Below, in pieces: positions 1 through 29,039 of a stretch of DNA of 64,000 nt; positions within the stretch are counted from its first letter, which is position 1, and every line of letters starts with the position of its first letter. Under the pieces are notes generated by a model. That model searched no databases. It was not told the origin of the DNA and was given only the letters and a program-made list of their open reading frames with translations. Position numbers and translations under genes: made by a program. The DNA is from Escherichia coli (GTDB lineage: Bacteria > Pseudomonadota > Gammaproteobacteria > Enterobacterales > Enterobacteriaceae), in the NCBI RefSeq assembly GCF_029227855.1, contig NZ_CP074356.1, one strand, 5' to 3'.

Positions 1-1
1 T

Positions 2-739
2 CGTGTGGGTATGGGGGGCTTCAGTGCTCTGCGTCAGGTGCGTGAAGGGGCGGAATATAAATACGTCACCACCGGAGATAAACAGGCCACTATTGCACTG
101 GCGACCTATGGCGAGCTGTTCAGTATCACCCGTCAGGCCATTATCAATGATGATCTGAATATGCTGACCGATGTCCCGATGAAACTGGGCCGTGCGGCGA
201 AATCCACTATTGCCGATCTGGTTTATGCCATTCTGACGTCTAACCCGAAAATCTCCACAGATAATGTAAGTCTGTTCGATAAAGCGAAACATGCAAACGT
301 ACTGGAGAGCGCTGCAATGGACGTGGCATCGCTGGATAAAGCCCGCCAGTTGATGCGCGTTCAGAAAGAGGGGGAGCGTCATCTGAATATTCGTCCTGCG
401 TTCGTACTGGTACCGACGGCGATGGAGTCTGTTGCTAACCAGGTCATTCGCTCCTCAAGTGTCAAGGGGGCTGACATTAACGCCGGTATTATTAACCCGG
501 TGAAAGATTTTGCGACCGTTATTGCAGAGCCTCGTCTTGATGATAACAGCCAGACCACCTTCTACCTGGCTGCGTCAAAAGGCTCCGATACGATTGAAGT
601 GGCTTATCTCAACGGTGTGGATACGCCATATATTGATCAGATGGAGGGCTTCAGTGTGGATGGCGTGACAACGAAAGTGCGTATTGACGCCGGTGTCGCG
701 CCAGTTGATCACCGCGGTCTGGTGAAATGTACGGCGTAA
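2..739 (+). CDS. Phage major capsid protein, 3' portion (5' end lies upstream of the window)
   Basis: Frame is open from the first base; sits immediately upstream of head-tail joining and tail genes; C-terminal sequence resembles HK97-fold capsid proteins. The ATG at 5 is probably internal. Confidence 0.65.
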   Translation, partial: RVGMGGFSALRQVREGAEYKYVTTGDKQATIALATYGELFSITRQAIINDDLNMLTDVPMKLGRAAKSTIADLVYAILTSNPKISTDNVSLFDKAKHANVLESAAMDVASLDKARQLMRVQKEGERHLNIRPAFVLVPTAMESVANQVIRSSSVKGADINAGIINPVKDFATVIAEPRLDDNSQTTFYLAASKGSDTIEVAYLNGVDTPYIDQMEGFSVDGVTTKVRIDAGVAPVDHRGLVKCTA

Positions 740-763
740 ACGTCGCAGACAACAACTCTGATG

Positions 764-782
764 GCCCGTAAGGGCTTTTTTT
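764..782 (+). terminator. Short stem-loop (GCCC-GTAA-GGGC) plus T-run just after the capsid gene; a second 7-bp stem-loop lies at 793-814
   Basis: Hairpin followed by 7 T residues directly after the capsid stop codon; weak intrinsic terminator or attenuator. Confidence 0.4.
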
Positions 783-825
783 GTACCTGAAATCAGCCCC
801 TGAACGGGGCTGTGCGGAGACAGTT

Positions 826-1149
826 ATGGCAAAGAATTTTGTAGAAGAAGGAAAAACGGTGGCGATTGTTGCCAGTGCAGCCATCAGCAGCGGAGAGCTG
901 GTGCAGGTGGGTGATGTTTTTGCGGTGGCGCTGACCGATATTCCACAGGGTGAAACAGGCGACGGCATGACCGAAGGTGTGTTTATGCTGCCTAAGCTGA
1001 AAACGGATGACATGAAAACGGGTAAGAAGGTTTATCTGAAGTCCGGAAAAGTTCAGCTGACTAACAGCGGCTCTGATCCGCTGGTCGGGGTTGTCTGGGC
1101 AGATGCCGGAACCAGTGCAGAAGAAGTGCCGGTAAAACTCAATGTCTGA
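826..1149 (+). CDS. Small phage head-associated protein
   Basis: 107-aa ORF with a GGAGA Shine-Dalgarno, between the capsid and head-tail genes; the upstream ATG at 781 falls inside a hairpin. Confidence 0.5.
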   Translation: MAKNFVEEGKTVAIVASAAISSGELVQVGDVFAVALTDIPQGETGDGMTEGVFMLPKLKTDDMKTGKKVYLKSGKVQLTNSGSDPLVGVVWADAGTSAEEVPVKLNV

Positions 1150-1417
1150 TCCCTTTTCCCGGCTGGCAGCGCGTATGGATGCGATCACGGTCAGAAAGAT
1201 GGGAAAGACAGCCTCGATTAATGATGTCGATATGACTGTGATCCCGGGAGAAACACTGGCAGAGCTGAATGCTCTGTCCGGACCTGCGGTCTCTCTGGTG
1301 GTGTTTTCTTCGGGATACCGCCCACGGCGCGGGGATCGCGTTGTTTATGACGGACAACAATGGACGGTCACACGGCATGAACGCTTTAACGGTAAGCCAA
1401 TGATCTTTATTGAGTAA
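1142..1417 (+). CDS. Phage head-tail joining/adaptor protein
   Basis: 91-aa ORF whose ATG overlaps the previous stop; position matches lambda FII-type genes. Confidence 0.5.
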   Translation: MSDPFSRLAARMDAITVRKMGKTASINDVDMTVIPGETLAELNALSGPAVSLVVFSSGYRPRRGDRVVYDGQQWTVTRHERFNGKPMIFIE

Positions 1418-1428
1418 AGAGGTGTGGG

Positions 1429-2019
1429 ATGAAGGGGCTTGAGAATGCCATCCGCAATCTGAACAGCCTTGATACCCGTATGGTGCCACAGGCCAGCGCA
1501 TGGGCGATAAACCGTGTGGCACAGAAAGCGGTCTCGGTTGCCACCCGGCAGGTTGCCGGGAATACCGTTGCGGGAGATAACCAGGTGAAAGGGATCCCCC
1601 TGAAACTGGTACGTCAGCGTGTCCGGGTGTTTAAAGCCAGTCCGTCAGGAAAAATGACGGCCAGGATCCGCGTTAACCGGGGCAATCTGCCCGCCATCAA
1701 ACTGAACACAACACGGCGGCGTGCTGGTGAAGGACTGAGAGTGGGAAAATACTTTTTCCGGGGGGCATTTGTTCAGCAACTGGCGAATGGCCGCTGGCAT
1801 GTTCTGAGGCGTCTTCCTGAAGCGCGTTTTGCAACAGGGCATGACCATCAGGGCAGGCCAAGAAAAAATCGTCTTCCTGTGGAGGTAGTGAAAATCCCGC
1901 TGTCCGGACCGCTGACACAGGCATTTGAAGATGCCCGCGACCACATCATTGCTGCGGAAATGCCGAAACAGCTGGGGTATGCACTGAAACAACAACTGAG
2001 GTTATGGCTGACCCGATGA
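1429..2019 (+). CDS. Tail completion protein (lambda gpZ-like)
   Basis: 196 aa, close to lambda Z in size and position; stop overlaps the next start in an ATGA motif. Confidence 0.7.
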   Translation: MKGLENAIRNLNSLDTRMVPQASAWAINRVAQKAVSVATRQVAGNTVAGDNQVKGIPLKLVRQRVRVFKASPSGKMTARIRVNRGNLPAIKLNTTRRRAGEGLRVGKYFFRGAFVQQLANGRWHVLRRLPEARFATGHDHQGRPRKNRLPVEVVKIPLSGPLTQAFEDARDHIIAAEMPKQLGYALKQQLRLWLTR

Positions 2020-2417
2020 ACCGACATACACAAATCCGCCAGGTCGTACTGGCACGCCTTCGGGAACAGTGTGGAGACAGCGCCACGTTTTTTGACGGGC
2101 TTCCGGCATTTATTGATGCGCAGGAACTGCCTGCCGTGGCGGTGTGGCTGAGTGATGCTCAGTACACCGGAAAAATGACGGATGAAGATGACTGGCAGGC
2201 TGTTCTGCATATTGCCGTCTTCATCCGGGCACAGGCACCGGATTCAGAGCTGGATATGTGGATGGAGAGCACCATTTTCCCGGCCCTGAATGATGTACCG
2301 GCACTTTCCGGACTCATCGACACCCTGAACCCACTCGGTTTTAACTATCAACGTGATAATGAGATGGCCACCTGGGCGATGGCGGAAATCACGTACCAGA
2401 TCACGTACACGAATTAA
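2016..2417 (+). CDS. Tail terminator protein (lambda gpU-like)
   Basis: Shares recalled lambda U motifs (ATFFDG, PAVAVWL, PDSELDMWMES, PAL) and ends ITYQITY. Confidence 0.85.
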   Translation: MNRHTQIRQVVLARLREQCGDSATFFDGLPAFIDAQELPAVAVWLSDAQYTGKMTDEDDWQAVLHIAVFIRAQAPDSELDMWMESTIFPALNDVPALSGLIDTLNPLGFNYQRDNEMATWAMAEITYQITYTN

Positions 2418-2427
2418 GGAGGTGGTA

Positions 2428-3171
2428 ATGACCACACCAAATCCACTGGCAAAGACGAAAGGTGCGGGGACGACGTTCTGGATGTATACCGGCAACGGCG
2501 ATGCGTTTGCGAACCCTTTGTCGGACACTGACTGGCTGCGTCTTGCGATGGTGAAGGATCTGCAACCTGGCGAAATGACCGCTGATGCAGAAGATGACAC
2601 TTATCTCGATGATGAAGATGCAGACTGGAAAACGACAACCCAGGGGCAGAAATCCGTTGGTGATACTTCGGCGACGCTGGCCTGGCGTCCGGGTGACAGC
2701 GGGCAGAAAAAACTGGTTCAGTTGTTCGACTCCGGTGAAGTCTGCGCGTTTCGTATCAAATATCCCAACGGCACTGTTGATGTTTTCCGTGGCTGGCTGA
2801 GCTCACTGGGTAAAACCATTGCCTCAAAAGACGTGATGACCCGCACTGTGAAAATCAGCGGTGTGGGGCGTCCGTATCTGGCAGAGGAAGGCACTGAAAC
2901 CGTGAGCGTTACCGGGCTGACAGTATCACCGGCGTCTGCCAGTGTAAAAGTGGGAGCAACCACCACGCTGACCTTTACAGTAAAACCTGACGGAGCCAGT
3001 GACAAAGCGATCAGTGTGCATTCGTCAGATCCACAGACTGCCACGGTTACCCTGAACGGACTTGTGGCCACGGTAAAAGGCGTGAAGCAGGGCAGTGTCA
3101 GCATTGTGGGCATGACCGCTGACGGGAATTTTGTGGCTGTGGCTGCGGTGACTGTCAGCGCCGCAGGTTAA
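2428..3171 (+). CDS. Major tail protein (lambda gpV-like) with C-terminal Ig-like (Big_2) domain
   Basis: ATG at 2428 follows an AAGGAGGTGG Shine-Dalgarno; 247 aa; C-terminus is a Thr/Val-rich beta domain typical of V. Confidence 0.9.
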   Translation: MTTPNPLAKTKGAGTTFWMYTGNGDAFANPLSDTDWLRLAMVKDLQPGEMTADAEDDTYLDDEDADWKTTTQGQKSVGDTSATLAWRPGDSGQKKLVQLFDSGEVCAFRIKYPNGTVDVFRGWLSSLGKTIASKDVMTRTVKISGVGRPYLAEEGTETVSVTGLTVSPASASVKVGATTTLTFTVKPDGASDKAISVHSSDPQTATVTLNGLVATVKGVKQGSVSIVGMTADGNFVAVAAVTVSAAG

Positions 3172-3191
3172 CAGGACGATACTCATCATTT

Positions 3192-3219
3192 GCCCCGGTT
3201 ATCCGGGGCTTTTTTGCAG
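3192..3219 (+). terminator. Intrinsic terminator-like hairpin between V and G
   Basis: GCCCCGG-TTAT-CCGGGGC stem followed by TTTTTT. Confidence 0.55.
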
Positions 3220-3228
3220 GTGGAGAAC

Positions 3229-3618
3229 ATGATGTTTCTGAAACAGGGCACGTTTAATTATGAAAAACAGTCCGTGGTGCTCAGTGAGCTGTCCGGGCTG
3301 CAGAGAATTGAATATCTGGCGTTTGTTCAGCAGCGAACGGCAAAGTTTGATGCCGGTGAGGGAGAACTGCCGGAGGCTGAACGACAGATTGCTTTTCTGC
3401 GGATGGGGATGGATATCAATGCCTGGCTGGTTTCCCGCTCACTGTGGAATGCGGATCAGTCTAAGGATGTAGAGACGCTTTGCGCATCCGTTATTACAAC
3501 ATGGTCGTATGATGCCCTGGGTGCGGGGGCGGAGATGGTTCTGTCGCTGAGCGGTATGGGGGCCATTGATAATGCCGGGGATGATGAGCATGAGGCGCTG
3601 ACGCCGGAAAAGTCCTGA
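3229..3618 (+). CDS. Tail assembly chaperone (lambda gpG-like)
   Basis: 129-aa ORF; GGTGGAG Shine-Dalgarno before ATG 3229; sits before the tape measure gene. Confidence 0.85.
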   Translation: MMFLKQGTFNYEKQSVVLSELSGLQRIEYLAFVQQRTAKFDAGEGELPEAERQIAFLRMGMDINAWLVSRSLWNADQSKDVETLCASVITTWSYDALGAGAEMVLSLSGMGAIDNAGDDEHEALTPEKS

Positions 3619-3956
3619 CGCGGGAAATGCAGTTTGTCATGCGGCTTGCCCGGGAGTTCCGACGGGCAGACTGGCGGCGGATGCTGTCGGAAATGTCGGC
3701 CACTGAGCTTGGTGAGTGGGGCGATTATTTCCGGATGCAGAGCTTCAGTGATGTGTGGATGGATGCGCAGTTTGCCTCGCTGAAGGCATTGATCGTGAGA
3801 ATGGTGTCCGGCAGCAGTGATGCTGCGGTGGCTGATTTCAGCCTTTTACCGGAAGAGAACGGGATACCGGAGCGAACGGACGAAGAACTGATGCATCTTG
3901 GGGAAGGTATTTCCGGAGGTGTGCGTTATGGACCAGATAGCCAACCTGGTCATTGA
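3594..3956 (+). CDS. T-frame extension of the G-T fusion chaperone (reached by -1 frameshift from G)
   Basis: The -1 frame is open from 3594 and overlaps the last 8 codons of G; candidate slip site GGAAAAG at 3606-3612. Confidence 0.65.
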   Translation, partial: GADAGKVLTREMQFVMRLAREFRRADWRRMLSEMSATELGEWGDYFRMQSFSDVWMDAQFASLKALIVRMVSGSSDAAVADFSLLPEENGIPERTDEELMHLGEGISGGVRYGPDSQPGH

Positions 3957-6900
3957 TTTGGGGATTGATGCGGCAGAGTTTAAAAATGAAATCCCCCGTA
4001 TCAAAAACCTTCTGAATGGTGCAGCCAGCGATGCAGAACGGTCTTCTGCCCGTATGCAGCGTTTTATGGAGCGTCAGACTCAGGCCGCCCGGCAGACAAC
4101 GCAGGCGGCGTCTTCGGCTGCAACAGCCGCATCCGTCCATGCGCAGACAGTGGAGAAGAACGCACAGGCTCATGAACGCATGGCCCGCGAGGTGGAGAAA
4201 ACCCGCCAGCGCATGGAGGCGCTGAGCCAGAAAATGCGCGAGGAACAGGCGCAGGCCATGGCTCTGGCGGAGGCTCAGGATAAAGCGGCTGCTGCGTTTT
4301 ATCGTCAGATTGACAGTGTGAAACAGGCCAGTGCGGGGCTGCAGGAATTACAGCGTATTCAGCAGCAGATCCGACAGGCCAGAAACAGTGGCGGGATTGG
4401 TCAGCAGGATTATCTGGCGCTGATTTCTGAGGTTACGGCGAAAACCCGTGTTCTTACACAGGCTGAGGAAGAGGCTACCCGACAGAAAGTGGCGTTTATC
4501 CGTCAGCTTAAAGAGCAGGCAACCCGCCAGAATCTTTCTTCTTCTGAGTTGCTTCGTGCTAAGGCTGCCCAGCTGGGGGTAAGCAGTGCTGCAGAAGTGT
4601 ATATCCGCAAAATGGAGCAGGCAGGAAAAGCCACGCATTCGCTGGGTCTGAAAAGTGCAGCGGCCCGTCAGGAGATAGGCGTTCTGATAGGTGAACTGGC
4701 CCGCGGAAATTTAGGTGCGCTGAGGGGATCCGGAATAACGCTGGCTAACCGTGCCGGGTGGATAGACACATTGATGTCACCGAAAGGCATGATGCTTGGC
4801 GGGGTTATTGGCGGTATTGCCGCGGCTGTCTATGGTCTGGGTAAAGCCTGGTATGACGGTCAGAAGGAGGGGGAAGAATTTAACCGCCAGCTGTCGCTGA
4901 CGGGGCATTATGCCGGAGTCACTGCCGGGCAGCTGTGGACGCTCAGTCGTGCTATTTCCGGGAATGGTATCACGCAACATGCTGCAGCCGGTGCGCTGGC
5001 TCAGGTGGTGGGTAGTGGTGCATTTCGTGGAAACGATATCGGTATGGTGGCGAGAGCTGCCGCACAGATGGAGCGATCGGTTGGCCAGTCGATCAGCGAT
5101 ACCATAAATCAGTTTAAGCGGCTGAAGGATGATCCTGTAAATGCCGCGAAGGCTCTGGACAATGAGCTGCATTTTCTTACTGCCACTCAGCTTGAGCAGA
5201 TACGTGTCCTTGGGGATCAGGGACGGTCCAGTGATGCTGCACGGATAGCCATGTCTGCACTGGCAGAGGAAACCGGTCGGCGTACTGCGGATATTGATAA
5301 TAACCTCAATGCGCTTGGTAGTACGCTGAAGTATCTGTCTGATTTGTGGAGTCGTTTCTGGGATGCGGCCATGAATATTGGTCGTGAAGACTCGCTGGAT
5401 GAACAAATTGCCGCTTTACAGGAGAAAGTGTCGCGGGCGAAAAGACTCCCCTGGACGGCATCATCTTCTCAGGTTGAATACGATCAGCAGCGTCTTAACG
5501 ATCTTCAGGAGAAAAAACGCCAGAAGGATTTGCAGGATGCAAAAGAGCAGGCAGAGCGGAATTATCAGGAGCAACAGAAACGCCGTAATGCTGAAAATGC
5601 TGCACTGAACCGGATGAATGAAACTGAAGCAGCACGGCATCAGCGTGAAATTGCGCGTATTAATGCCATGCAGTACGCCGATCAGGCTGTCAGGGATGCG
5701 GCGATACAACGTGAAAATGAACGTTACGAGAAAGCCCTGGCATCCGGTAAGAAAAAAACACGCGAAACCCGTAATGATGAGGCCACCCGGTTATTGCTGC
5801 AGTACAGTCAGCAACAGGCACAGGTGGAAGGGCAGATTGCTGCTGCAAGACAGTCAGCAGGCATTGCCACTGACAGGATGACAGAAGCGCATAAACAGCT
5901 TCTGGCTCTGCAGCAGCGCATCAGCGACCTGGACGGGAAAAAACTGACGGCAGATGAAAAGAGTGTGCTTGCCCGTAAAGATGAACTGATTCAGGCATTG
6001 ACGCTGCTGGATGTAAAACAGCAGGAGCTTCAGAAACAGACGGCACTCAACGAGCTGAAGAAAAAAACAATTCAGCTGACCAGTCAACTGGCTGAAGAAG
6101 AGCGCGCTCAGCGTCAGCAACATGACCTGGATATCGCCACGGTGGGTATGGGTGATCAGCAGCGGCAGCGATATCAGGTACAACTGAGTCTTCGCCAGAA
6201 ATACCAGCAACAGCTGGAGCAGTTGAGGCGGGATAGTGAGCGGAAAGGGACATATAACACGGATGACTACAGAAAGGCCGAGCAGGCGCTGACGGAGAGC
6301 CTGAACCGACAACTGAGTGAGAATCGCCGTTACTGGCAACAGCTTGAAATTGCTCAGGGTGACTGGAAAAACGGAGTCCTGCGTGCACTCCAGAATGTCA
6401 CTGAGAATGCGGATAACACAGCCGGGACAGTGGAACAGTTGTTCACGTCTGCGTTCAGTAGCATGAGTGACTGGCTGGCGACATTCTGTACTACAGGCAA
6501 ACTCAATTTCAAATCCTTCACCTCTTCTGTGCTGTCAGATATGTCCAGAATCATGGCTCAGATAGCTTTAATGAAAGCGGTAAAAGGCATTGCTTCCGCG
6601 CTGCCTTTTGATTTTGTAGCTAATGCTGATGGCGGTGTTTATCAGTCGGCTGATTTGAGTCGCTACAGTGGCACGGTGGTTAACCGTCCGACGTTTTTTG
6701 CTTTTGCAAAAGGCGCGGGTGTGATGGGGGAAGCTGGGCCTGAAGCCATTCTGCCACTGCGTCGTGGTGCTGACGGTAAGCTGGGGGTTGTGGCGGATAT
6801 TGGTGGTTCAGGTATGGCGATGTTTGCCCCGCAGTACAACATCGAGATCAATAACGATGGCACGAACGGGCAGATAGGTCCGGCTGCCCTGAAGGTGGTT

Positions 6901-6984
6901 TATGACCTTGGGAAAAAAGCGGCAGCGGACTTTATGCAACAGCAGGCCCGTGATGGTGGTCGGTTAAGTGGAGCATATCGGTAA
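3928..6984 (+). CDS. Tail tape measure protein (lambda gpH-like)
   Basis: 1018 aa, coiled-coil rich; N-terminus (MDQIANLVIDLGIDAA) and C-terminus (NNDGTNGQIGPAALKVVYD) match recalled lambda H; GGAGGTG Shine-Dalgarno before 3928. Confidence 0.9.
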   Translation: MDQIANLVIDLGIDAAEFKNEIPRIKNLLNGAASDAERSSARMQRFMERQTQAARQTTQAASSAATAASVHAQTVEKNAQAHERMAREVEKTRQRMEALSQKMREEQAQAMALAEAQDKAAAAFYRQIDSVKQASAGLQELQRIQQQIRQARNSGGIGQQDYLALISEVTAKTRVLTQAEEEATRQKVAFIRQLKEQATRQNLSSSELLRAKAAQLGVSSAAEVYIRKMEQAGKATHSLGLKSAAARQEIGVLIGELARGNLGALRGSGITLANRAGWIDTLMSPKGMMLGGVIGGIAAAVYGLGKAWYDGQKEGEEFNRQLSLTGHYAGVTAGQLWTLSRAISGNGITQHAAAGALAQVVGSGAFRGNDIGMVARAAAQMERSVGQSISDTINQFKRLKDDPVNAAKALDNELHFLTATQLEQIRVLGDQGRSSDAARIAMSALAEETGRRTADIDNNLNALGSTLKYLSDLWSRFWDAAMNIGREDSLDEQIAALQEKVSRAKRLPWTASSSQVEYDQQRLNDLQEKKRQKDLQDAKEQAERNYQEQQKRRNAENAALNRMNETEAARHQREIARINAMQYADQAVRDAAIQRENERYEKALASGKKKTRETRNDEATRLLLQYSQQQAQVEGQIAAARQSAGIATDRMTEAHKQLLALQQRISDLDGKKLTADEKSVLARKDELIQALTLLDVKQQELQKQTALNELKKKTIQLTSQLAEEERAQRQQHDLDIATVGMGDQQRQRYQVQLSLRQKYQQQLEQLRRDSERKGTYNTDDYRKAEQALTESLNRQLSENRRYWQQLEIAQGDWKNGVLRALQNVTENADNTAGTVEQLFTSAFSSMSDWLATFCTTGKLNFKSFTSSVLSDMSRIMAQIALMKAVKGIASALPFDFVANADGGVYQSADLSRYSGTVVNRPTFFAFAKGAGVMGEAGPEAILPLRRGADGKLGVVADIGGSGMAMFAPQYNIEINNDGTNGQIGPAALKVVYDLGKKAAADFMQQQARDGGRLSGAYR

Positions 6985-7313
6985 TGGAGACGTTTCACTG
7001 GAAAGTGCGCCCGGATATGAATGTGGTATCAGAGCCGAAAGTGGTGACAGTGAAGCTGGGCGATGGTTATGAACAGCGTCGTGCGGCGGGACTGAATAAC
7101 CAGTTGTCGACTTACAGCGTGACGATACGTGTTCGTAAATGTGAACACCCATCTTTAAAAGCCTTTCTGGAACGGCACGGTGGCGTCCGCGCATTTCAGT
7201 GGACGCCACCTTATGACTGGAAGCCGATCAGGGTGGTTTGTCGTAAATGGTCGGCAAGCGTGGGGGCGCTGTGGGTAACCATAACGGCAGATTTTGAACA
7301 GGTCGTGGCATAG
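6984..7313 (+). CDS. Minor tail protein (lambda gpM-like)
   Basis: 109 aa, same length as lambda M; start overlaps the H stop. Confidence 0.9.
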   Translation: METFHWKVRPDMNVVSEPKVVTVKLGDGYEQRRAAGLNNQLSTYSVTIRVRKCEHPSLKAFLERHGGVRAFQWTPPYDWKPIRVVCRKWSASVGALWVTITADFEQVVA

Positions 7314-7322
7314 GAGGCCCTG

Positions 7323-8021
7323 ATGCAGGATATTCCACAGGAAACACATCATGAGACGACACGCCTTACTCAGTCAGCCCAGGTGGTGCTCTGGGAAATC
7401 GATCTGACAGAGGTCGGTGGTGAACGTTATTTTTTCTGTAATGAGCAGAACGAAAAAGGTGAGCCGGTCACCTGGCAGGGGCGGCAGTATCAGGTATACC
7501 CTATTCAGGGGACGGGATTTGAACTGAACGGTAAGGGTAGTGCTGCCCGTCCGACACTGACGGTCTCTAACCTGCACGGCATGGTCACCGGGATGGTGGA
7601 AGACCTGCAGAGTCTGGTCGGCGGAACGGTGGTCAGGCGTAAGGTTTACGCCCGTTTTCTGGATGCGGTGAACTTCGTCAACGGAAACAGCGACGCCGAT
7701 CCGGAGCAGGAGGTGATCAGCCGCTGGCGCATCGAGCAGTGCAGCGAACTGAGTGCGGTCAGTGCCTCCTTTGTGCTCTCCACACCGACGGAAACGGATG
7801 GTGCTGTTTTTCCGGGGCGCATCATGCTGGCCAACACCTGCACCTGGACCTATCGCGGTGATGAGTGCGGTTATCATGGTCCGGCTGTCGCGGATGAATA
7901 TGACCAGCCGACGTCCGATATCACGAAGGATAAATGCAGCAAATGCCTGAGCGGCTGTAAGTTTCGCAATAACGTCGGCAACTTTGGCGGCTTCCTTTCC
8001 ATTAACAAACTTTCGCAGTAA
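7323..8021 (+). CDS. Minor tail protein (lambda gpL-like)
   Basis: 232 aa, same length as lambda L; Cys-rich C-terminus. Confidence 0.9.
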   Translation: MQDIPQETHHETTRLTQSAQVVLWEIDLTEVGGERYFFCNEQNEKGEPVTWQGRQYQVYPIQGTGFELNGKGSAARPTLTVSNLHGMVTGMVEDLQSLVGGTVVRRKVYARFLDAVNFVNGNSDADPEQEVISRWRIEQCSELSAVSASFVLSTPTETDGAVFPGRIMLANTCTWTYRGDECGYHGPAVADEYDQPTSDITKDKCSKCLSGCKFRNNVGNFGGFLSINKLSQ

Positions 8022-8025
8022 TCCC

Positions 8026-8769
8026 ATGACACAGACAGAATCAGCGATTCTGGCGCACGCCCGGCGATGTGCGCCAGCGGAGTCGTGCGGCTTCGTGGTG
8101 AGAACGCCGGAGGGGGAAAGATATTTTCCCTGCGTGAATATCTCCGGTGAGCCGGAGGATTATTTCCGGATGTCGCCGGAGGACTGGCTGCAGGCAGAGA
8201 TGCAGGGTGAGATTGTGGCGCTGGTCCACAGTCATCCCGGTGGTCTGCCCTGGCTGAGTGAGGCTGACCGGTGGCTGCAGGTGCAGAGTGATTTGCCGTG
8301 GTGGCTGGTCTGCCGGGGGGCGATTCACAAGTTCCGCTGTGTGCCGCATCTCACCGGGCGGCGCTTTGAGCACGGGGTGACGGACTGTTACACGCTGTTC
8401 CGGGACGCTTACCATCTGGCGGGGATTGAGATGCCGGATTTTACGCGGGAGGATGACTGGTGGCGTCACGGTCAGAATCTCTATCTGGATAATCTGGAGG
8501 CCACAGGGCTGTATCAGGTGCCGTTGTCAGCGGCGCAGCCGGGCGATGTGCTGCTGTGCTGTTTTGGTTCATCGGTGCCGAATCACGCCGCAATTTACTG
8601 CGGCGACGGCGAGCTGCTGCACCATATTCCTGAACAACTGAGCAAACGAGAGAGGTATACCGACAAATGGCAGCGACGCACACACTCCCTCTGGCGTCAC
8701 CGGGCATGGCGCGCATCTGCCTTTACGGGGATTTACAACGATTTGGTCGCCGCATCGACCTTCGTGTGA
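8026..8769 (+). CDS. Tail tip assembly protein (lambda gpK-like; MPN/JAB and NlpC/P60-type domains)
   Basis: HSHPGG motif typical of JAB/MPN; placed between L and I; 247 aa, longer than lambda K, overlapping I by about 100 nt. Confidence 0.8.
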   Translation: MTQTESAILAHARRCAPAESCGFVVRTPEGERYFPCVNISGEPEDYFRMSPEDWLQAEMQGEIVALVHSHPGGLPWLSEADRWLQVQSDLPWWLVCRGAIHKFRCVPHLTGRRFEHGVTDCYTLFRDAYHLAGIEMPDFTREDDWWRHGQNLYLDNLEATGLYQVPLSAAQPGDVLLCCFGSSVPNHAAIYCGDGELLHHIPEQLSKRERYTDKWQRRTHSLWRHRAWRASAFTGIYNDLVAASTFV

Positions 8770-9308
8770 AAACGGGGGCTGAAGCCATCCGGGCGCTGGC
8801 CACACAGCTCCCGGCGTTTCGTCAGAAACTGAGCGACGGCTGGTATCAGGTACGGATTGCCGGGCGTGATACAGGTGAAACGGAATTATCAGCCCGTCTT
8901 AATGAACCGCTGGCAAATGGTGCTGTGATCCATATCGTGCCGCGTCTGGCAGGAGCCAAAAGTGGCGGTGTGTTTCAGGCTGTGCTGGGGGCGGCTGTTA
9001 TGGCGGTTGCTATATGGATGCCGGGGGTAGGAATTATGGCGAGTAATCTGCTGTTTTCTCTCGGTGCCAGTATGACGCTTGGCGGTGTTGCACAGATGCT
9101 GGCCCCTAAACCCAAAACCCCCCGCACACAGACAACGGATAACGGCAAACAGAACACCTATTTTTCTTCACTGGATAATATGGTTGCCCAGGGCAATGTT
9201 CTGCCCGTTCTGTACGGTGAAATGCGCGTGGGATCACGTGTGGTATCTCAGGAGATCAGCACAGCAGATGAAGGTGATGGTGGTCAGGTTGTGGTGATTG
9301 GTCGCTGA
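8667..9308 (+). CDS. Tail assembly protein (lambda gpI-like)
   Basis: 213 aa; N-terminal ubiquitin-like region, hydrophobic Gly/Ala-rich middle, C-terminus ISTADEGDGGQVVVIGR. Confidence 0.85.
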   Translation: MAATHTLPLASPGMARICLYGDLQRFGRRIDLRVKTGAEAIRALATQLPAFRQKLSDGWYQVRIAGRDTGETELSARLNEPLANGAVIHIVPRLAGAKSGGVFQAVLGAAVMAVAIWMPGVGIMASNLLFSLGASMTLGGVAQMLAPKPKTPRTQTTDNGKQNTYFSSLDNMVAQGNVLPVLYGEMRVGSRVVSQEISTADEGDGGQVVVIGR

Positions 9309-9368
9309 TGAAAAACGTTTTATGTGAAACCGCCTCCGGGCGGTTTTATCGTTTATGGAGCATGACGA

Positions 9369-12300
9369 ATGGGTAAAGGCAGCAGTAAGGGGCATACCCC
9401 GCGCGAAGCGAAGGACAACCTGAAGTCCACGCAGCTGCTGAGTGTGATCGATGCCATCAGCGAAGGGCCGGTTGAAGGTCCGGTGGATGGATTAAAAAGC
9501 GTGCTGCTGAACAGTACGCCGGTGCTGGACAGTGAGGGGAATACCAATATATCCGGCGTCACGGTGGTGTTCCGGGCCGGTGAGCAGGAGCAGACTCCGC
9601 CGGAGGGATTTGAATCCTCCGGTTCCGAGACGGTGCTGGGTACGGAAGTGAAATATGACACGCCGATCACCCGCACCATCACGTCGGCAAACATCGACCG
9701 TCTGCGCTTTACCTTCGGTGTGCAGGCACTGGTGGAAACCACCTCAAAGGGGGACAGGAATCCATCGGAAGTCCGCCTGCTGGTTCAGATACAACGTAAC
9801 GGTGGCTGGGTGACGGAAAAAGACATCACCATTAAGGGTAAAACCACCTCGCAGTATCTGGCCTCAGTGGTGGTGGATAACCTGCCGCCGCGCCCGTTTA
9901 ATATCCGGATGCGCAGGATGACGCCGGACAGCACCACAGACCAGCTGCAGAACAAAACGCTCTGGTCGTCATACACCGAAATCATCGATGTGAAACAGTG
10001 CTACCCGAACACGGCACTGGTCGGCGTGCAGGTGGACTCGGAGCAGTTCGGCAGCCAGCAGGTGAGCCGTAATTATCATCTGCGAGGGCGTATTCTGCAG
10101 GTGCCGTCGAACTATAACCCGCAGACGCGGCAATACAGCGGTATCTGGGACGGGACGTTTAAACCGGCATACAGCAACAACATGGCCTGGTGTCTGTGGG
10201 ATATGCTGACCCATCCGCGCTACGGCATGGGGAAGCGTCTCGGTGCGGCGGATGTGGACAAATGGGCGCTGTATGTCATCGGCCAGAATTGCGACCAGTC
10301 GGTGCCGGATGGCTTTGGTGGCACGGAGCCGCGCATCACCTGTAATGCCTGGCTGACCACGCAGCGCAAGGCGTGGGATGTGCTCAGTGATTTCTGCTCG
10401 GCGATGCGCTGTATGCCGGTATGGAACGGGCAGACGCTGACGTTCGTGCAGGACCGGCCATCGGATAAGGTGTGGACCTATAACCGCAGTAATGTGGTGA
10501 TGCCGGATGATGGCGCGCCGTTCCGCTACAGCTTCAGCGCCCTGAAGGACCGTCATAATGCCGTTGAGGTGAACTGGATTGACCCGAATAACGGCTGGGA
10601 GACGGCGACAGAGCTTGTGGAGGACACGCAGGCCATTGCCCGTTACGGTCGTAACGTCACGAAGATGGATGCCTTTGGCTGTACCAGCCGGGGGCAGGCA
10701 CACCGCGCCGGGCTGTGGCTGATTAAAACAGAACTGCTGGAAACGCAGACCGTGGATTTCAGCGTCGGCGCAGAAGGGCTTCGCCATGTACCGGGCGATG
10801 TTATTGAAATCTGTGATGATGACTATGCCGGTATCAGCACCGGTGGTCGTGTGCTGGCGGTGAACAGCCAGACCCGGACGCTGACGCTCGACCGTGAAAT
10901 CACGCTGCCATCCTCCGGTACCACGCTGATAAGCCTGGTTGACGGAAGTGGCAATCCGGTCAGCGTGGAGGTTCAGTCCGTCACCGACGGCGTGAAGGTA
11001 AAAGTGAGCCGTGTTCCTGACGGTGTTGCTGAATACAGCGTATGGGGGCTGAAGCTGCCGACGCTGCGCCAGCGACTGTTCCGCTGCGTGAGTATCCGTG
11101 AGAACGACGACGGCACGTATGCCATCACCGCCGTGCAGCATGTGCCGGAAAAAGAGGCCATCGTGGATAACGGGGCGCACTTTGACGGCGAACAGAGTGG
11201 CACGGTGAATGGTGTCACGCCGCCAGCGGTGCAGCACCTGACCGCAGAAGTCACTGCAGACAGCGGGGAATATCAGGTGCTGGCGCGCTGGGATACGCCG
11301 AAGGTGGTGAAGGGTGTGAGCTTTATGCTTCGCCTGACCGTGGCAGCGGATGACGGCAGTGAGCGGCTGGTCAGCACGGCCCGGACGACGGAAACCACAT
11401 ACCGCTTCAGGCAGCTGGCGCTGGGAAGCTACAGGCTGACAGTCCGGGCGGCAAATGCCTGGGGGCAGCAGGGCGATCCTGCATCGGTATCGTTCCGGAT
11501 TGCCGCACCGGCAGCGCCGTCGCGGATTGAGCTGACGCCGGGCTATTTTCAGATAACCGCCACGCCCCATCTTGCCGTTTATGATCCGACGGTACAGTTT
11601 GAGTTCTGGTTCTCGGAAAAGCGGATTGCGGATATCAGGCAGGTTGAAACTACAGCCCGCTATCTTGGCACGGCGCTGTACTGGATAGCTGCCAGTATCA
11701 ATATCAAACCGGGCCATGATTATTATTTTTACATCCGCAGTGTGAACACCGTTGGCAAATCGGCATTTGTGGAGGCTGTTGGCCAGCCGAGTGATGATGC
11801 ATCCGGCTATCTGGATTTTTTCAAAGGCGAGATAGGGAAAAGCCATCTGGCTCAGGAGCTGTGGACGCAGATTGATAACGGTCAGCTTGCGCCTGACCTG
11901 GCTGAAATCAGGACGTCCATTACGGATGTCAGCAATGAAATCACGCAGACCGTCAATAAGAAACTGGAAGACCAGAGTGCGGCAATCCAGCAGATACAGA
12001 AGGTTCAGGTTGATACAAATAATAACCTGAACAGCATGTGGGCTGTGAAGCTGCAGCAGATGCAGGACGGACGCCTTTATATCGCGGGTATTGGTGCCGG
12101 TATTGAGAATACCCCTGACGGTATGCAGAGTCAGGTGCTGCTGGCGGCGGACAGGATTGCGATGATTAATCCTGCGAATGGCAACACAAAACCGATGTTT
12201 GTTGGTCAGGGCGATCAGATATTCATGAACGAAGTGTTCCTGAAATATCTGACGGCTCCCACCATTACCAGCGGCGGTAATCCTCCGGCATTTTCCCTGA

Positions 12301-12848
12301 CACCGGACGGGCGGCTGACGGCGAAAAATGCCGATATTAGCGGTAACGTGAATGCGAACTCCGGGACGCTCAACAACGTCACGATTAACGAGAACTGCCG
12401 GGTTCTGGGAAAACTGTCCGCGAACCAGATTGAAGGCGATCTCGTTAAAACAGTGGGCAAAGCTTTCCCCCGGGACTCCCGTGCACCGGAACGGTGGCCA
12501 TCAGGGACCATTACCGTCAGGGTTTATGACGATCAGCCGTTTGACCGGCAGATTGTTATTCCGGCGGTGGCATTCAGCGGCGCTAAACATGAGAGAGAGC
12601 ATACTGATATTTACTCCTCATGCCGTCTGATAGTGCGGAAAAACGGTGCTGAAATTTATAACCGTACCGCGCTGGATAATACGCTGATTTACAGTGGCGT
12701 TATTGATATGCCTGCCGGTCACGGTCACATGACGCTGGAGTTTTCGGTGTCAGCATGGCTGGTAAATGACTGGTATCCCACAGCAAGTATCAGCGATCTG
12801 CTGGTTGTGGTGATGAAGAAAGCCACCGCAGGCATCAGTATCAGCTGA
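9369..12848 (+). CDS. Host specificity / central tail fibre protein (lambda gpJ-like)
   Basis: 1159 aa; the first ~800 aa match recalled lambda J closely; the C-terminal ~300 aa differ. Confidence 0.95.
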
Positions 12849-12867
12849 ATTTTATAACCCATATACG

Positions 12868-12892
12868 GGCGCCAGAAATGGCGCCTTTTTTA
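12868..12892 (+). terminator. Intrinsic terminator after J
   Basis: GGCGCC-AGAAAT-GGCGCC hairpin followed by TTTTTTT. Confidence 0.6.
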
Positions 12893-12915
12893 TTGCAGAA
12901 AAGCGAGAGGTAATT

Positions 12916-13515
12916 ATGCGTAAAGTTTGTGCCGCCATTTTTTCCGCAGCCATTTGTCTGGCCGTATCCGGTGCGCCTGCATGGGCATCTGAACATCAGT
13001 CCACGCTGAGCGCGGGGTATCTTCATGCCTCGACGAACGTTCCCGGCAGCGATGATCTGAACGGGATTAACGTGAAATACCGTTATGAGTTTACGGACAC
13101 ACTGGGGATGGTGACGTCATTCAGCTATGCAGGAGACAAGAATCGCCAGCTTACCCGTTACAGCGATACCCGCTGGCATGAAGATTCCGTGCGTAACCGC
13201 TGGTTCAGCGTGATGGTGGGGCCGTCTGTGCGCGTGAATGAATGGTTCAGCGCGTATGCGATGGCGGGTATGGCTTACAGCCGTGTTTCGACTTTCTCCG
13301 GAGATTATATCCGCGTAACTGACAACAAGGGGAAAACGCACGATGTGCTGACCGGAAGTGATGACGGTCGCCACAGCGACACGTCTCTGGCATGGGGGGC
13401 TGGCGTGCAGTTTAACCCGACCGAATCCGTGGCCATTGATATTGCTTATGAAGGTTCCGGCAGTGGCGACTGGCGCACTGACGGTTTCATCGTTGGTGTC
13501 GGTTATAAATTCTGA
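12916..13515 (+). CDS. lom: Lom-like outer membrane beta-barrel protein (Ail/PagC/OmpX family)
   Basis: 199 aa with signal peptide, alternating aromatic beta strands and terminal Phe; sits after J as in lambda. Confidence 0.9.
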
Positions 13516-13541
13516 TTAGCCAGGTAACACAGTGTTATGAC

Positions 13542-13569
13542 AGCCCGCCGGTTCAGGCGGGCTTTTTTG
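13542..13569 (+). terminator. Intrinsic terminator after lom
   Basis: AGCCCGCC-GGTTCAG-GCGGGCT hairpin followed by TTTTTT. Confidence 0.6.
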
Positions 13570-14272
13570 TGCACAGAAAACCCCCAGCTAGGCTGGGGGT
13601 TCCGGAAAGCTTTCAGCTTTGAGCCAGTTATTAAAACCCCTTTTGATTTGTTAAAACACTTTGCGGTCTGGCAACTGCAAGTGTCAAACAAGAAATCAAA
13701 AGGGGGTCCCAATGGGGAACGAAAAGAGCTTAGCGCACACCCGATGGAACTGTAAATATCACATAGTTTTTGCGCCAAAATACCGAAGACAGGTGTTCTA
13801 CAGAGAGAAGCGTAGAGCAATAGGCAGTATTTTGAGAAAGCTGTGTGAGTGGAAAAGCGTACGGATTCTGGAAGCTGAATGCTGTGCAGATCATATCCAT
13901 ATGCTTGTGGAGATCCCGCCCAAAATGAGCGTATCCGGGTTTATGGGATATCTGAAAGGGAAAAGCAGTCTGATGCTTTACGAGCAGTTTGGTGATTTGA
14001 AATTCAAATACAGGAACAGGGAGTTCTGGTGCAGAGGGTACTACGTCGATACAGTGGGTAAGAACACGGCGAAGATACAGGATTACATAAAGCACCAGCT
14101 TGAAGAGGATAAAATGGGAGAGCAGTTATCGATTCCCTATCCGGGCAGCCCGTTTACGGGCCGTAAGTAACGAAGTTGGATGCAAATGTCAGATCGTGTG
14201 CGCCTGTTAGGGCGCGGCTGGTAAGAGAGCCTTATAGGCGCATTTGAAAAACCTCCGGCTATGCCGGAGGAT
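13568..14272 (+). mobile_element. IS200-type insertion sequence (IS200/IS605 family); boundaries approximate
   Basis: About 0.7 kb, a single Y1 transposase gene, left-end hairpin AAAACCCCCAGC-TAG-GCTGGGGGTT and a second stem-loop over the tnpA ribosome binding site. Confidence 0.65.
13712..14170 (+). CDS. tnpA: IS200-type transposase TnpA (HuH Y1 transposase)
   Basis: 152 aa with an HxH-type motif (HIHMLVEI) and the usual IS200 TnpA length. Confidence 0.85.
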   Translation: MGNEKSLAHTRWNCKYHIVFAPKYRRQVFYREKRRAIGSILRKLCEWKSVRILEAECCADHIHMLVEIPPKMSVSGFMGYLKGKSSLMLYEQFGDLKFKYRNREFWCRGYYVDTVGKNTAKIQDYIKHQLEEDKMGEQLSIPYPGSPFTGRK

Positions 14273-14290
14273 ATTTATTGTGGAGTGGAT

Positions 14291-16696
14291 ATGGCAGCAG
14301 TAAAAATCTCAGGTGTGCTGAAAGATGGTGCGGGAAAACCAATACAGAACTGCACTATTCAACTGAAGGCAAAGCGTAACAGCACCACGGTACTGGTGAA
14401 CACGGTGGCTTCTGAAAATCCGGATGAAGCCGGACGTTACAGCATGGATGTTGAGTATGGCCAGTACAGCGTCACCCTGCTGGTTGAAGGTTTTCCGCCT
14501 TCACATGCCGGGACCATTACCGTCTATGAAGGCTCCAGACCAGGTACGCTGAATGATTTTCTCGGTGCCATGACGGAAGATGATGTCATGCCGGAGGCAT
14601 TGCGTCGTTTTGAGGCAATGGTGGAAGAAGTGGCACGCAACGCCGAAGCCGCCTCTCAGAGCGCAGCGGCGGCAAAGAAATCCGAAACTGCAGCGGCATC
14701 ATCAAAGAACGCGGCGAAAACCTCAGAAACGAATGCAGCTAATAGTGCACAGGCGGCAGCGACCTCAAAGACTGCATCGGCAAACTCCGCGACAGCAGCC
14801 AAAAAATCAGAAACCAACGCGAAAAATAGCGAGACAGCCGCAAAGACGAGCGAAACCAACGCAAAGTCCAGCCAGACGGCAGCGAAAACCAGCGAAACGA
14901 ATGCCAAAGCCAGTGAAACTGCGGCAAAAAACAGCCAGGTTGCAGCAGCCCAAAGCGAGAGCGCGGCAGCCGGTTCTGCGACTTCAGCAGCTGGATCAGC
15001 AACTGCTGCGGCTAACAGCCAGAAAGCTGCGAAGACGAGTGAAACTAACGCAAAGTCCAGCCAGACGGCAGCGAAGACCAGCGAAACGAATGCCAAAGCC
15101 AGTGAAACTGCGGCGAAAAGCAGTCAGGATGCAGCGGCCCAAAGCGAGAGTGCCGCAGCCAGTTCTGCAAGCGCGGCGGCTGCTTCTGCCACTGCATCAG
15201 CCAACAGTCAAAAAGCAGCAAAAACCAGTGAAACCAACGCAAAGGCGAGCGAGACTGCGGCGGCGAACTCGGCGCAAGCATCGGCAGCAAGCCAGACAGC
15301 AGCTAAAGCAAGTGAAGACGCAGCCAGAGAGTATGCAAGCCAGGCAGCGGAGCCGTATAAATATGTCTTACAGCCACTGCCTGATGTGTGGATACCGTTT
15401 AACGATTCACTGGATATGATTACGGGCTTTTCGCCATCATATAAAAAAATTGTTATTGGCGACGATGAAATAACAATGCCTGGCGACAAGATTGTAAAGT
15501 TTAAACGCGCATCGAAAGCAACTTACATTAATAAATCTGGTGTGCTGACAGAGGCTGCCATTGACGAGCCACGATTTGAACGTGATGGCCTGCTTATTGA
15601 GGGGCAAAGAACTAACCTGCTAATCAATTCAACAAATCCGACTAAATGGAACAAGTCGTCAAATATGATCTTAAGTGCATCAGGTGTAGATGATTTCGGA
15701 TTCCAGTACGCAAAATTTACATTAAAACCAGAAATGGTAGGGCAAATTTCAGCGATTAACATAGTAACCGTTTCCGGCAGTAAAGGTTTTGATGTAACAG
15801 GCGGAGAAAAGTATGTAACCATATCATGCAGGGTGCAAAGTGGCACTCCAAATTTAAGATGCCGATTACGATTTGAAAACTATGATGGTTCTACCTACAC
15901 ATTCTTAGGTGACGCTTACTTAAATACGACAGATTTATCTATTGATAAGACGGGTGGTGCCGCTAATCGCATTACTGCAAGGGCTGTTAAAGATGAAGCA
16001 AGCAAATGGATCTTTTTTGAGGCGACAATTAAGGCACTTGATACAGAAAATATGATAGGTGGAATGGTTCAGTATGCCCCGGCAAAAGGAGTGGGCACTG
16101 GCGCGGATGATTATATTTATATTGCGACCCCTCAAGTTGAAGGTGGGGCGTGCGCTTCATCGTTTATTATAACAGGCGCATCCCCTGTAACACGCGCCAG
16201 CGATATTGTAACGGTCCCCATTTCTCTAAATTGGTGCAATCCCGCTATTAGTTCATTAGCAGAAGTTAATACCAATTGGGATGAATCGCCAAACAAAGAA
16301 GGTAGCGCACGTATTCTTAATATTTCCACTACGGGAGATACAACTGAAATTGCAGATGAAAGTTATATGTATTTGGGGTATACATCTTTGGGAGCACGCG
16401 CAATCATTACAAATGGTAAAGGCACTAAAATAGAATATAAAAGCGTTATAGAACGACCAGAGAGAAAAAGCATTATCGGCTTTAGATTCACAGAAAGTCG
16501 AGAATTGTGTGTTGTGGTTAACGGTAATATTGGTGCTAAGGTGGTTTCTCCTTATAAAAAACACAAATATACAGGAGGCTTCATTAATATTGGTGGTCAA
16601 TCATCATCCGGCAACCGTCACCTATTTGGACACGTTCGAAATCTGCGTATTTGGCACAAGGCATTGACTGATGCTCAGATGGGGGAGTCAATCTAA
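14291..16696 (+). CDS. stf: Side tail fibre protein: lambda Stf-like N-terminus, Ala/Ser/Thr-rich repeats, divergent C-terminus with LamG/concanavalin-like domain
   Basis: The first ~130 aa match recalled lambda Stf (MAVKISGVLKDG..QNCTIQLKAKRNSTT); the C-terminal region is AT-rich and ends in a LamG-type motif (NLRIWHKALTDAQM). Confidence 0.9.
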   Translation: MAAVKISGVLKDGAGKPIQNCTIQLKAKRNSTTVLVNTVASENPDEAGRYSMDVEYGQYSVTLLVEGFPPSHAGTITVYEGSRPGTLNDFLGAMTEDDVMPEALRRFEAMVEEVARNAEAASQSAAAAKKSETAAASSKNAAKTSETNAANSAQAAATSKTASANSATAAKKSETNAKNSETAAKTSETNAKSSQTAAKTSETNAKASETAAKNSQVAAAQSESAAAGSATSAAGSATAAANSQKAAKTSETNAKSSQTAAKTSETNAKASETAAKSSQDAAAQSESAAASSASAAAASATASANSQKAAKTSETNAKASETAAANSAQASAASQTAAKASEDAAREYASQAAEPYKYVLQPLPDVWIPFNDSLDMITGFSPSYKKIVIGDDEITMPGDKIVKFKRASKATYINKSGVLTEAAIDEPRFERDGLLIEGQRTNLLINSTNPTKWNKSSNMILSASGVDDFGFQYAKFTLKPEMVGQISAINIVTVSGSKGFDVTGGEKYVTISCRVQSGTPNLRCRLRFENYDGSTYTFLGDAYLNTTDLSIDKTGGAANRITARAVKDEASKWIFFEATIKALDTENMIGGMVQYAPAKGVGTGADDYIYIATPQVEGGACASSFIITGASPVTRASDIVTVPISLNWCNPAISSLAEVNTNWDESPNKEGSARILNISTTGDTTEIADESYMYLGYTSLGARAIITNGKGTKIEYKSVIERPERKSIIGFRFTESRELCVVVNGNIGAKVVSPYKKHKYTGGFINIGGQSSSGNRHLFGHVRNLRIWHKALTDAQMGESI
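14837..15214 (+). repeat. In-frame tandem duplication, 2 x 189 bp (63 aa each), inside stf
   Basis: Two near-identical 63-aa units (AAKTSETNAKSSQTAAKTSETNAKASETAAK...ANSQK) within a wider 9-aa periodic region. Confidence 0.8.
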
Positions 16697-16977
16697 TGAA
16701 AGATTTAACACTCAAATTTGCCGACAGGGCCGATTTTTCGGCCTTTATGGGAAGTATTGGCTATTATAATGACGAGTCGATGCAGGATGATATTCTGATT
16801 GATGTGATAGGTAACGTGTACAAAGAAACCGGAGAGCTGACTGAAGATGGCGAACCGGTATGTGTTAAGGAAGATGGATATTTTGTAAACGTGCGCATCA
16901 TTAAGGATACGCAAATATCGTCATTATTCGATGAATACGCGGTTGCTGTTGAGCATCAACTTCGTGGCTGGATGTGA
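16696..16977 (+). CDS. Hypothetical small acidic protein, translationally coupled to stf
   Basis: 93-aa ORF whose ATG overlaps the stf stop (TAATG); AT-rich; no family recognised. Confidence 0.5.
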   Translation: MKDLTLKFADRADFSAFMGSIGYYNDESMQDDILIDVIGNVYKETGELTEDGEPVCVKEDGYFVNVRIIKDTQISSLFDEYAVAVEHQLRGWM

Positions 16978-16986
16978 GGTAGAGAA

Positions 16987-17691: not shown

Positions 17692-17701
17692 AGGAGGCGT
17701 A

Positions 17702-17995
17702 ATGGATATAACACCTTTCCTTCATGCACTTTGTGCTGTGGCTGCGCAGGTACTGGTTGGTCTTTTTACCGGAAACTGGGCTTACGGGGCGATAGCTGGT
17801 TGTACGTTCTTCATTGCGCGTGAACATACCCAGGCAGAATATCGCTGGATTGAAATGTTCGGGCATGGCAAGCGTATGAATATGCCGTGGTGGGGCGGTT
17901 TTGATCCGCGTGCGTGGGATGTGGCAAGCCTGATGGATTTTGCTGTGCCGGTGGTGGCGTGTCTGCTGGTCTGGCTGTTGGTTAATCGTGGGTGA
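17702..17995 (+). CDS. Hypothetical small membrane protein (2-3 predicted TM segments)
   Basis: 97-aa ORF with hydrophobic stretches; GGAGG Shine-Dalgarno upstream. Confidence 0.45.
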   Translation: MDITPFLHALCAVAAQVLVGLFTGNWAYGAIAGCTFFIAREHTQAEYRWIEMFGHGKRMNMPWWGGFDPRAWDVASLMDFAVPVVACLLVWLLVNRG

Positions 17996-18005
17996 AAAAA
18001 GGTGA

Positions 18006-18125
18006 GCTGTATATGCAACGGAGGAAGAAACCTCGTTGCGGGAAGCCTTGAAGAAGTATCGGGTGTTGCTGAACCGTGTTGATACGTCAACTGCACAGGA
18101 TATTGAATGGCCAGCACTGCCGTAG
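18006..18125 (+). pseudogene. tfa: Tail fibre assembly (Tfa) gene remnant: only the conserved C-terminal ~39 codons
   Basis: Translation [29 protein letters not shown] matches the conserved Tfa C-terminus; the frame closes at a stop just upstream at 18003-18005. Confidence 0.55.
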
Positions 18126-28999: not shown

Positions 29000-29039
29000 G
29001 CTCCGTTTAACATTCATTGAGAAAACTGATGCTACTGTG

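Follow-up and report, generated by a model that had tools for sequence, protein, structure and literature searches.

A predicted intrinsic terminator between the tail genes V and G belongs to a family of late-operon hairpins in an mEp460-type Escherichia coli prophage

Results

Genes at the V-G junction

The 64,000 nucleotides of Escherichia coli DNA analyzed here (the window) open inside a capsid gene (Phage_capsid_4; stop codon at 739), which in full-length relatives is a fusion of a ClpP protease and the capsid protein. Further downstream lies the junction between the tail genes V and G, for which the PGAP gene coordinates were taken from a genome with 99.9% identity. The following features were identified:

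2428-3171, plus strand: major tail tube gene V, stop codon TAA at 3169-3171 (Phage_TTP_12, 1.2e-66, and Big_2)
3192-3209, plus strand: predicted V-G terminator hairpin, with 5' arm GCCCCGG (3192-3198), loop TTAT (3199-3202) and 3' arm CCGGGGC (3203-3209)
3210-3215, plus strand: U-tract TTTTTT, beginning at the first base past the stem
3222-3225, plus strand: Shine-Dalgarno sequence GGAG of G, read from the sequence, 6 nt past the U-tract
3232-3618, plus strand: tail assembly chaperone gene G, start codon ATG at 3232 (Phage_TAC_2, 1.8e-39)
3606-3612, plus strand: -1 slip site G-GAA-AAG of G/T, leading into T

The V product has 247 aa. The spacer between V and G is 60 nt long, and the hairpin begins 20 nt past the TAA of V. 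Open reading frame T (to 3956; Phage_tail_T, 3.9e-15) lies in the -1 frame after G, and a tape measure gene encoding 1028 aa comes after G/T. The labels of V, G, T and the capsid gene are upheld by these domain matches. In the alignment of G homologues the G and A columns of the GGAG were invariant. The slip site reads G-GAA-AAG compared to G-GGA-AAG in lambda, and it encodes the C-terminal residues PEKS of G, which were invariant in all five aligned G proteins.

The prophage and earlier annotation of the element

Positions 2300-4000 of the window were found to be 97-99% identical to the E. coli phages mEp460, cdtI, Ayreon, Tritos, PhiR55_1, and others. The prophage resides at the Qin site in E. 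coli genomes, flanked by ydfJ, ydfK, pinQ, cspI, and gnsB. Its part within the window reaches to about position 19300, and it is a full-length lambdoid phage, complete where the Qin prophage of K-12 is defective. At least 80% of positions 1-20000 was found in one place in just 19 of 5,426 complete E. coli genomes, and the best matches to this region covered 96% of it in two pieces. Judged by homology, the V-G element belongs to the late operon of an mEp460/cdtI-type lambdoid prophage.

In the mEp460 record (JQ182728.1) a "rho-independent terminator" is annotated at 8751-8774 between the major tail gene and the G-like gene. Terminators are also annotated there after the protease/scaffold/capsid gene, along with two that flank lom. 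The Ayreon record (MF807953.1) has a rho-independent terminator at the V-G site (8742-8782) and another at the capsid gene site. Both phages are 97-98% identical to the prophage over this region and carry the same element in the same place, the annotations being in silico predictions. Because these two records annotate the V-G site, the terminator is already publicly known as a prediction. The mEp460 record places a third "terminator" inside gene T, which corresponds to GGCTG-ATTT-CAGCC plus TTTT at 3830-3843 of the window; this weak hairpin of five pairs lies within coding sequence and is probably a chance match.

Fold of the V-G hairpin and its excess over chance

A GC-rich stem followed by six T residues had been noticed between V and G, and this was borne out by the sequence, by a pattern scan and by shuffled controls. 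All seven pairs of the stem are G-C and enclose a loop of 4 nt, and the site ranked highest of the terminator-like sites in the pattern scan of positions 1-12000. Bases 3216-3219 (GCAG) fall outside the motif. The fold-energy calculation proposed for the hairpin likewise came out in its favor: a 36-nt RNA context was found to fold into exactly this hairpin and nothing else, with -16.2 kcal/mol and 88% of the ensemble. The z-score was -3.2, and an equally good fold was seen in one of 200 shuffles.

We assessed how often such hairpins arise by chance by counting, on both strands, perfect stems of at least 7 pairs with at least 6 G-C pairs and at least five T in the next six positions. In 100 dinucleotide-shuffled copies of the 64-kb window the mean was 0.06 per copy, compared to five distinct sites in the real window, i.e., an excess of about 80-fold over chance. 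All five sites are located at a gene edge or outside genes.

Read on the minus strand, the hairpin runs into AAATGATG, with no T run, so that the element is one-directional and co-oriented with the operon. Its G+C-rich stem with an adjoining U run agrees with the general build of intrinsic terminators (about 5-14 pairs and a loop of 3-8 nt), and so does its placement past a stop codon, in noncoding DNA and in the direction of transcription. The V-G element is thus a predicted factor-independent (intrinsic) terminator motif of the canonical kind.

The stem is more conserved than its surroundings

G homologues with their flanks were collected from viral contigs and from Gifsy-1, lambda, phi80, 21, mEp043, and an Stx2 phage. 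When the G alignment was used to scan representative bacterial genomes, all hits were chance pattern matches, and the deeper relatives were therefore drawn from viral contigs alone.

Eighteen distinct V-G spacers were recovered from relatives with 53-100% identity in G, and the hairpin was present in every one of them. Standard pairs were found in 99.2% of the stem cells of these relatives. Four of the seven pairs were invariant. The outer pair changed from G-C to A-U in the group with 66-67% identity and to G-U in the 64% group, while two further positions had wobble changes only; one pair was broken in one sequence. Covariation in the stem therefore appears slight, and the strong signal in the alignment is conservation. 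Over six lineages the identity was 0.92 for the stem, 0.40 for the rest of the spacer, and 0.33 for the loop. For the same lineages the coding identity was 60% in the last 300 nt of V and 70% in the first 300 nt of G. As judged from these comparisons, the V-G stem is under purifying selection.

A U-run of five to seven T was found in all E. coli-type groups (64-100% identity in G), the spacers of which were otherwise unalignable; runs were displayed for five of the six lineages of the identity comparison. In E. coli-type lineages the U-run thus also appears to be under selection. The Salmonella groups of the Fels-1 and Gifsy-1 types retain the hairpin, but have no more than TTTG, TTGG, or TTCTAT in place of the U-run. 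The hairpin is in this respect conserved independently of termination signals, as is characteristic of mRNA-stabilizing intercistronic hairpins. With the hairpin present in these phages but no usable U-run behind it, termination cannot fully account for the element, and their sequences point to a role that is at least partly centered on the hairpin, e.g., in RNA stability.

The hairpin was absent from the V-G junctions of lambda, 21, phi80, mEp043, and Stx2_95, where the gap is just 10-15 nt. As lambda, 21, phi80, mEp043, and the Stx2 phage make tails of the same kind without it, the element is dispensable for tail assembly.

In an exact-pattern scan the design GCCCCGG-N4-CCGGGGC-TTTT was found in more than 120 unrelated viral contigs among the matches listed. 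A design this generic argues against a recognition sequence specific for the V-G site. One heavily deleted prophage remnant (L052, identical to L119) was seen to have its portal gene fused, at about codon 115, to the right arm of the V-G hairpin at approximately 2440-2500. The deletion of about 7 kb ends in the hairpin loop, and what remains of G stops at residue 89, where it is joined to gene L.

Candidates considered at the V-G site

Several other identities were considered for the element and rejected. Rfam covariance models gave no match over positions 600-3400 at E up to 1. The small RNA sRNA-17, described from an mEp460-like prophage, is 193 nt long, is encoded on the other strand, and comes from an intergenic region of more than 1 kb. 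Sequestration of the Shine-Dalgarno sequence or start codon of G (CAUCAU with AUGAUG, UCAUUU with AGGUGG) adds just about 2 kcal/mol, is absent from both the centroid and the RNAalifold consensus structure, and is lost in the 64-67% and Gifsy/Fels groups. A palindrome bound by a sequence-specific protein is unlikely, as the loop is free to vary and the same design recurs in the unrelated viral contigs mentioned above (more than 120 among the matches listed).

The only Rfam matches at gathering score in the window were STnc490 and STnc560, both located away from V-G. STnc490, an Hfq-binding RNA, was matched in full length at 13579-13702 on the plus strand (144.6 bits), so that the match covers roughly the first 120 nt of the gene for the side tail fibre, directly past the lom terminator. 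A hairpin of nine pairs at its start resembles a minus-strand terminator (13600-13580, minus strand). The same fibre gene contains a perfect GC palindrome of eight pairs at 14252-14270, CCTCCGGC-TAT-GCCGGAGG, which is terminator-like on the minus strand, where it is followed by TTTTTC; this palindrome may be a module joint. STnc560 was matched in full length at 29011-29224 on the plus strand (281 bits) in host DNA, antisense to the efflux transporter gene ydeE (approximately 28731-29918, minus strand), and the region includes a terminator-like hairpin at 29116-29135.

Hairpins elsewhere in the late operon

Every intergenic gap of at least 30 nt was folded for three late operons, those of lambda, Gifsy-1, and the window prophage. 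Besides the V-G element, the following hairpins were found in the prophage:

763-782, plus strand: companion terminator-like hairpin after the capsid gene, GGCCC-GTAA-GGGCT plus a T run, 5 pairs
794-812, plus strand: second GC hairpin, CAGCCCC-TGAAC-GGGGCTG, without a U-run (-16.4 kcal/mol, z -2.5)
9327-9346, plus strand: hairpin in the I-J gap, AAACCGCC-TCCG-GGCGGTTT, found by gap folding, with a homologous hairpin in the lambda I-J gap
12868-12891, plus strand: terminator after J, GGCGCC-AGAAA-TGGCGCC plus T6 (-15.7 kcal/mol, z -3.4), annotated in mEp460
13542-13568, plus strand: terminator after lom, AGCCCGCC-GGTTCA-GGCGGGCT plus T5 (-22.9 kcal/mol, z -4.3), annotated in mEp460

The preliminary description had mentioned a weaker structure at 764-814 after the capsid gene. 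This structure is real and resolves into the two hairpins at 763-782 and 794-812, both located in the gap of 86 nt between the capsid gene and the gene for a cement (decoration) protein (826-1149; Phage_cement_2). The energy of the first is unremarkable on its own (-8.8 to -9.4 kcal/mol, z about -1 to -1.5). It is retained with an altered loop in L034 and is annotated as a terminator in mEp460 and Ayreon. The second lies 11 nt past the T run of the first and 3 nt ahead of the GGAG of the cement gene, and could serve as a 5'-end stabilizer for the downstream segment.

A stable GC hairpin was found in almost every gap surveyed, and a U-run in most. They lie after the capsid gene, V, I, J, and lom in the window prophage, after D, E, I, J, and lom in lambda, and after D, E, and V in Gifsy-1, whose head module is unrelated to that of the window. 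The hairpin in the lambda I-J gap (15445-15504 of the lambda sequence, L133) is almost identical to the one at 9327-9346, and lambda has the same terminator after lom, at 19612. The hairpin after lambda E has a UUCG loop and a poor U-run. The annotated L-K gap of lambda, 148 nt long (14128-14275), was the sole exception, and is probably coding. This stretch folds at -67.6 kcal/mol, and its counterpart in the prophage (region of 8022-8026) is coding. As K of the prophage begins right after L, the annotated start of lambda K may be too far downstream. By comparison among the three phages, the V-G hairpin is one member of a putative family of intra-operon hairpins, and the gaps in the late operon seem to exist because of the hairpins.

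Antitermination and promoters of the late operon

A Q-family antiterminator of 125 aa is encoded approximately 13.6 kb upstream of the window start, as seen in the 99.9% identical genome. It matches PF06530 (6.9e-51) and is related to Q21, with matches (E = 5e-9) to the PDB entries 6P18 and 6JNX, which are structures of Q21 bound to RNA polymerase, and the mEp460 gene mEp460_050 encodes a Q-like late regulator. Downstream of Q (sequence L004) we found a promoter-like site at 1726-1755 (9/12) and a terminator-like hairpin at 1853-1876, both as consensus matches only; their order is the one expected for a late promoter and tR'. A consensus scan of the plus strand from 3215 to 12000, which non-canonical promoters would escape, gave no sigma-70-like site except a weak one at 7404 (9/12). 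The genes from G to J are tightly packed, and no tail can be made without G, T, H, M, L, K, I, and J.

Q travels with the RNA polymerase and forms a nozzle on the RNA exit channel that keeps terminator hairpins from forming (Q21, bioRxiv 10.1101/651190; Q-lambda, PMC9388147). A strong-looking terminator can therefore be tolerated inside the operon. Since no promoter is predicted for the essential genes G to J alone and a Q antiterminator is encoded, the V-G element cannot be a full stop in lytic growth. Any step-down in transcription must accordingly be partial, or confined to polymerase without Q.

Discussion

A proposed role for the V-G element

Reduced transcription of the downstream tail genes, as the preliminary description suggested, is plausible, though it has to be squared with antitermination by Q. 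We consider it evenly balanced whether the element acts as a conditional, leaky terminator that also provides a protected 3' end, leaving more V message than downstream message. This combined role is the one we favor because the stem and, in the lineages of the window, the U-run both appear to be selected. In lytic growth the late operon would be read by polymerase carrying the Q21-family antiterminator. With the RNA exit channel narrowed by Q, most polymerases would pass the V-G site and express G, GT, H, M, L, K, I, and J. Polymerases not, or no longer, loaded with Q would stop there and leave RNAs ending after V, and a fraction of the Q-loaded polymerase may terminate as well. In RNAs ending after V, whether terminated or processed, the hairpin would resist 3'-to-5' exonucleases, and the net result would be a V message that exceeds the downstream message. 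The analysis shows the motif and its position, its excess over chance, selection on the stem and, in E. coli-type lineages, on the U-run, the lack of a predicted promoter downstream, and the presence of Q, whereas partial termination, protection of the RNA, and an effect on expression ratios are what we infer. In the literature search no transcript data were found at the V-G site for this prophage, mEp460, cdtI, Gifsy-1, or Fels-1.

The logic of placing such a hairpin ahead of low-copy products is imperfect. The capsid gene hairpins precede the gene for the cement protein, which is expected in amounts like those of the capsid protein, and the low-copy gene I is likewise followed by a hairpin. 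A rule that places hairpins between an abundant product and rarer ones downstream is therefore too simple.

Other explanations

The hairpin may act purely as an insulator that stops polymerase without Q, for example from read-through of tR' or from spurious starts inside the prophage, and thus silences the tail genes in the lysogen with no quantitative effect once Q is made. The full terminator motif within a Q-controlled operon speaks for this, such a role was explicitly proposed for sites of this kind in the phage L genome paper (bioRxiv 10.1101/2020.10.05.325894), and Q-loaded polymerase is termination-deficient (PMC9388147). Antitermination by Q might be near-complete, which would leave the element we describe above no quantitative effect in lytic growth. 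We regard insulation alone as a possible but minority explanation, since it accounts neither for the retention of the hairpin where the U-run is lost nor for a need for five hairpins along one operon, and lambda-type tails manage without a V-G hairpin. Another reading is a pure RNA element that acts after transcription, either as a barrier to 3' exonucleases or as a processing landmark, so that the V segment outlives G to J and termination is irrelevant. The conservation of the stem (0.92) next to a drifting loop and spacer is consistent with this, and so are the Fels-1/Gifsy-1-type phages, where the stem persists next to TTTG, TTGG, or TTCTAT, and the lambda hairpin after E, with its UUCG loop and no clean U-run. 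Ray and Pearson reportedly found in the 1970s that functional mRNA half-lives differ among the lambda late genes, which would fit as well. A stability hairpin would, however, not need the T5-T7 that are kept in E. coli-type groups despite diverged spacers, and in this pure form we hold the explanation to be rather improbable. A broader version, which we offer as speculation and judge unlikely, is that the stem and not the terminator is the selected part throughout, the late-operon hairpins being RNA-decay barriers that set the ratios of virion proteins through segment-specific mRNA stability while termination is switched off by Q. If this were true, the Fels-1 and Gifsy-1 types, in which the U-run is lost, would display the core function.

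The element may also be without any present function, either as what is left of an earlier insertion, namely the terminator of a moron since lost, or as a joint at which tail modules recombined. Lambdoid genomes are mosaic, the hairpin is missing at lambda-type V-G junctions, and one prophage remnant has a deletion endpoint in its hairpin loop. A relic would nevertheless not be expected to keep a stem identity of 0.92, above that of neighboring coding DNA, across lineages with 53-100% identity in G, nor single stem changes that are almost all wobble-compatible, and an extra gene at the site was found in none of the 18 spacer variants; we consider this explanation very unlikely. Six U after a stable hairpin is also the usual 3' module for Hfq, two Hfq-binding RNA families lie elsewhere in the window, and phage-encoded small RNAs are known in lambdoid late regions, all of which would suit a small regulatory RNA made from the 3' end of the V message. 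That the V-G hairpin is the Hfq-binding 3' end of such an RNA is nonetheless highly improbable: no Rfam model matched at E up to 1, no promoter-like site was found upstream within V, sRNA-17, the only small RNA reported from an mEp460-like prophage, lies elsewhere and on the opposite strand, and the hairpin design is generic, with more than 120 unrelated viral contigs among the matches listed.

Significance

The V-G site matters little by itself, as it was already annotated and belongs to a recognized class of terminator-like hairpins in lambdoid late operons. The modest value of this analysis lies in the comparative picture, i.e., a stem more conserved than coding DNA, a U-run that depends on the lineage, and a hairpin in almost every gap of at least 30 nt in three phages. 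Because their roles are called unknown in the literature, the late-operon hairpins offer a compact and testable system for studying how unequal protein yields are obtained from one Q-antiterminated transcript.

Comparison with known systems

For the hairpins of the P22-like phage L, partial termination and the stopping of polymerase without Q were named as two possible roles, with the statement that the roles "are not known" (bioRxiv 10.1101/2020.10.05.325894). In phage L as at V-G, predicted intrinsic terminators lie within a single-promoter late operon antiterminated by Q/gp23 and after a major structural gene or module, which in phage L is the procapsid. The position after V is specific to the tail module of the mEp460/cdtI/Gifsy/Fels type and is missing from lambda, 21, phi80, and mEp043.

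Leaky terminators that tune structural genes have been measured in other phages. The phiX174 terminators TJ, TF, and TG follow structural genes and block 20-40% of transcription (bioRxiv 10.1101/2020.03.05.979765), and further precedents are found in LUZ7 and T7, with most LUZ7 terminators allowing more than 50% read-through (PMC9163698). Like the V-G element, TJ, TF, TG, and TH of phiX174 are intrinsic terminators after structural genes in one flow of transcription, where they grade expression. However, the phiX174 terminators are weak by themselves and act in a phage that lacks an antiterminator, whereas the V-G motif looks strong and its leakiness would come from Q. Intercistronic hairpins that stabilize mRNA, as in the malE-malF REP, the Rhodobacter puf operon, and the pap operon, are located just 3' of the more highly expressed cistron. 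Their effects on decay have been measured, and they act without a U-run. The V-G element differs from these hairpins in that its U-run is present and is conserved in the lineage of the window.
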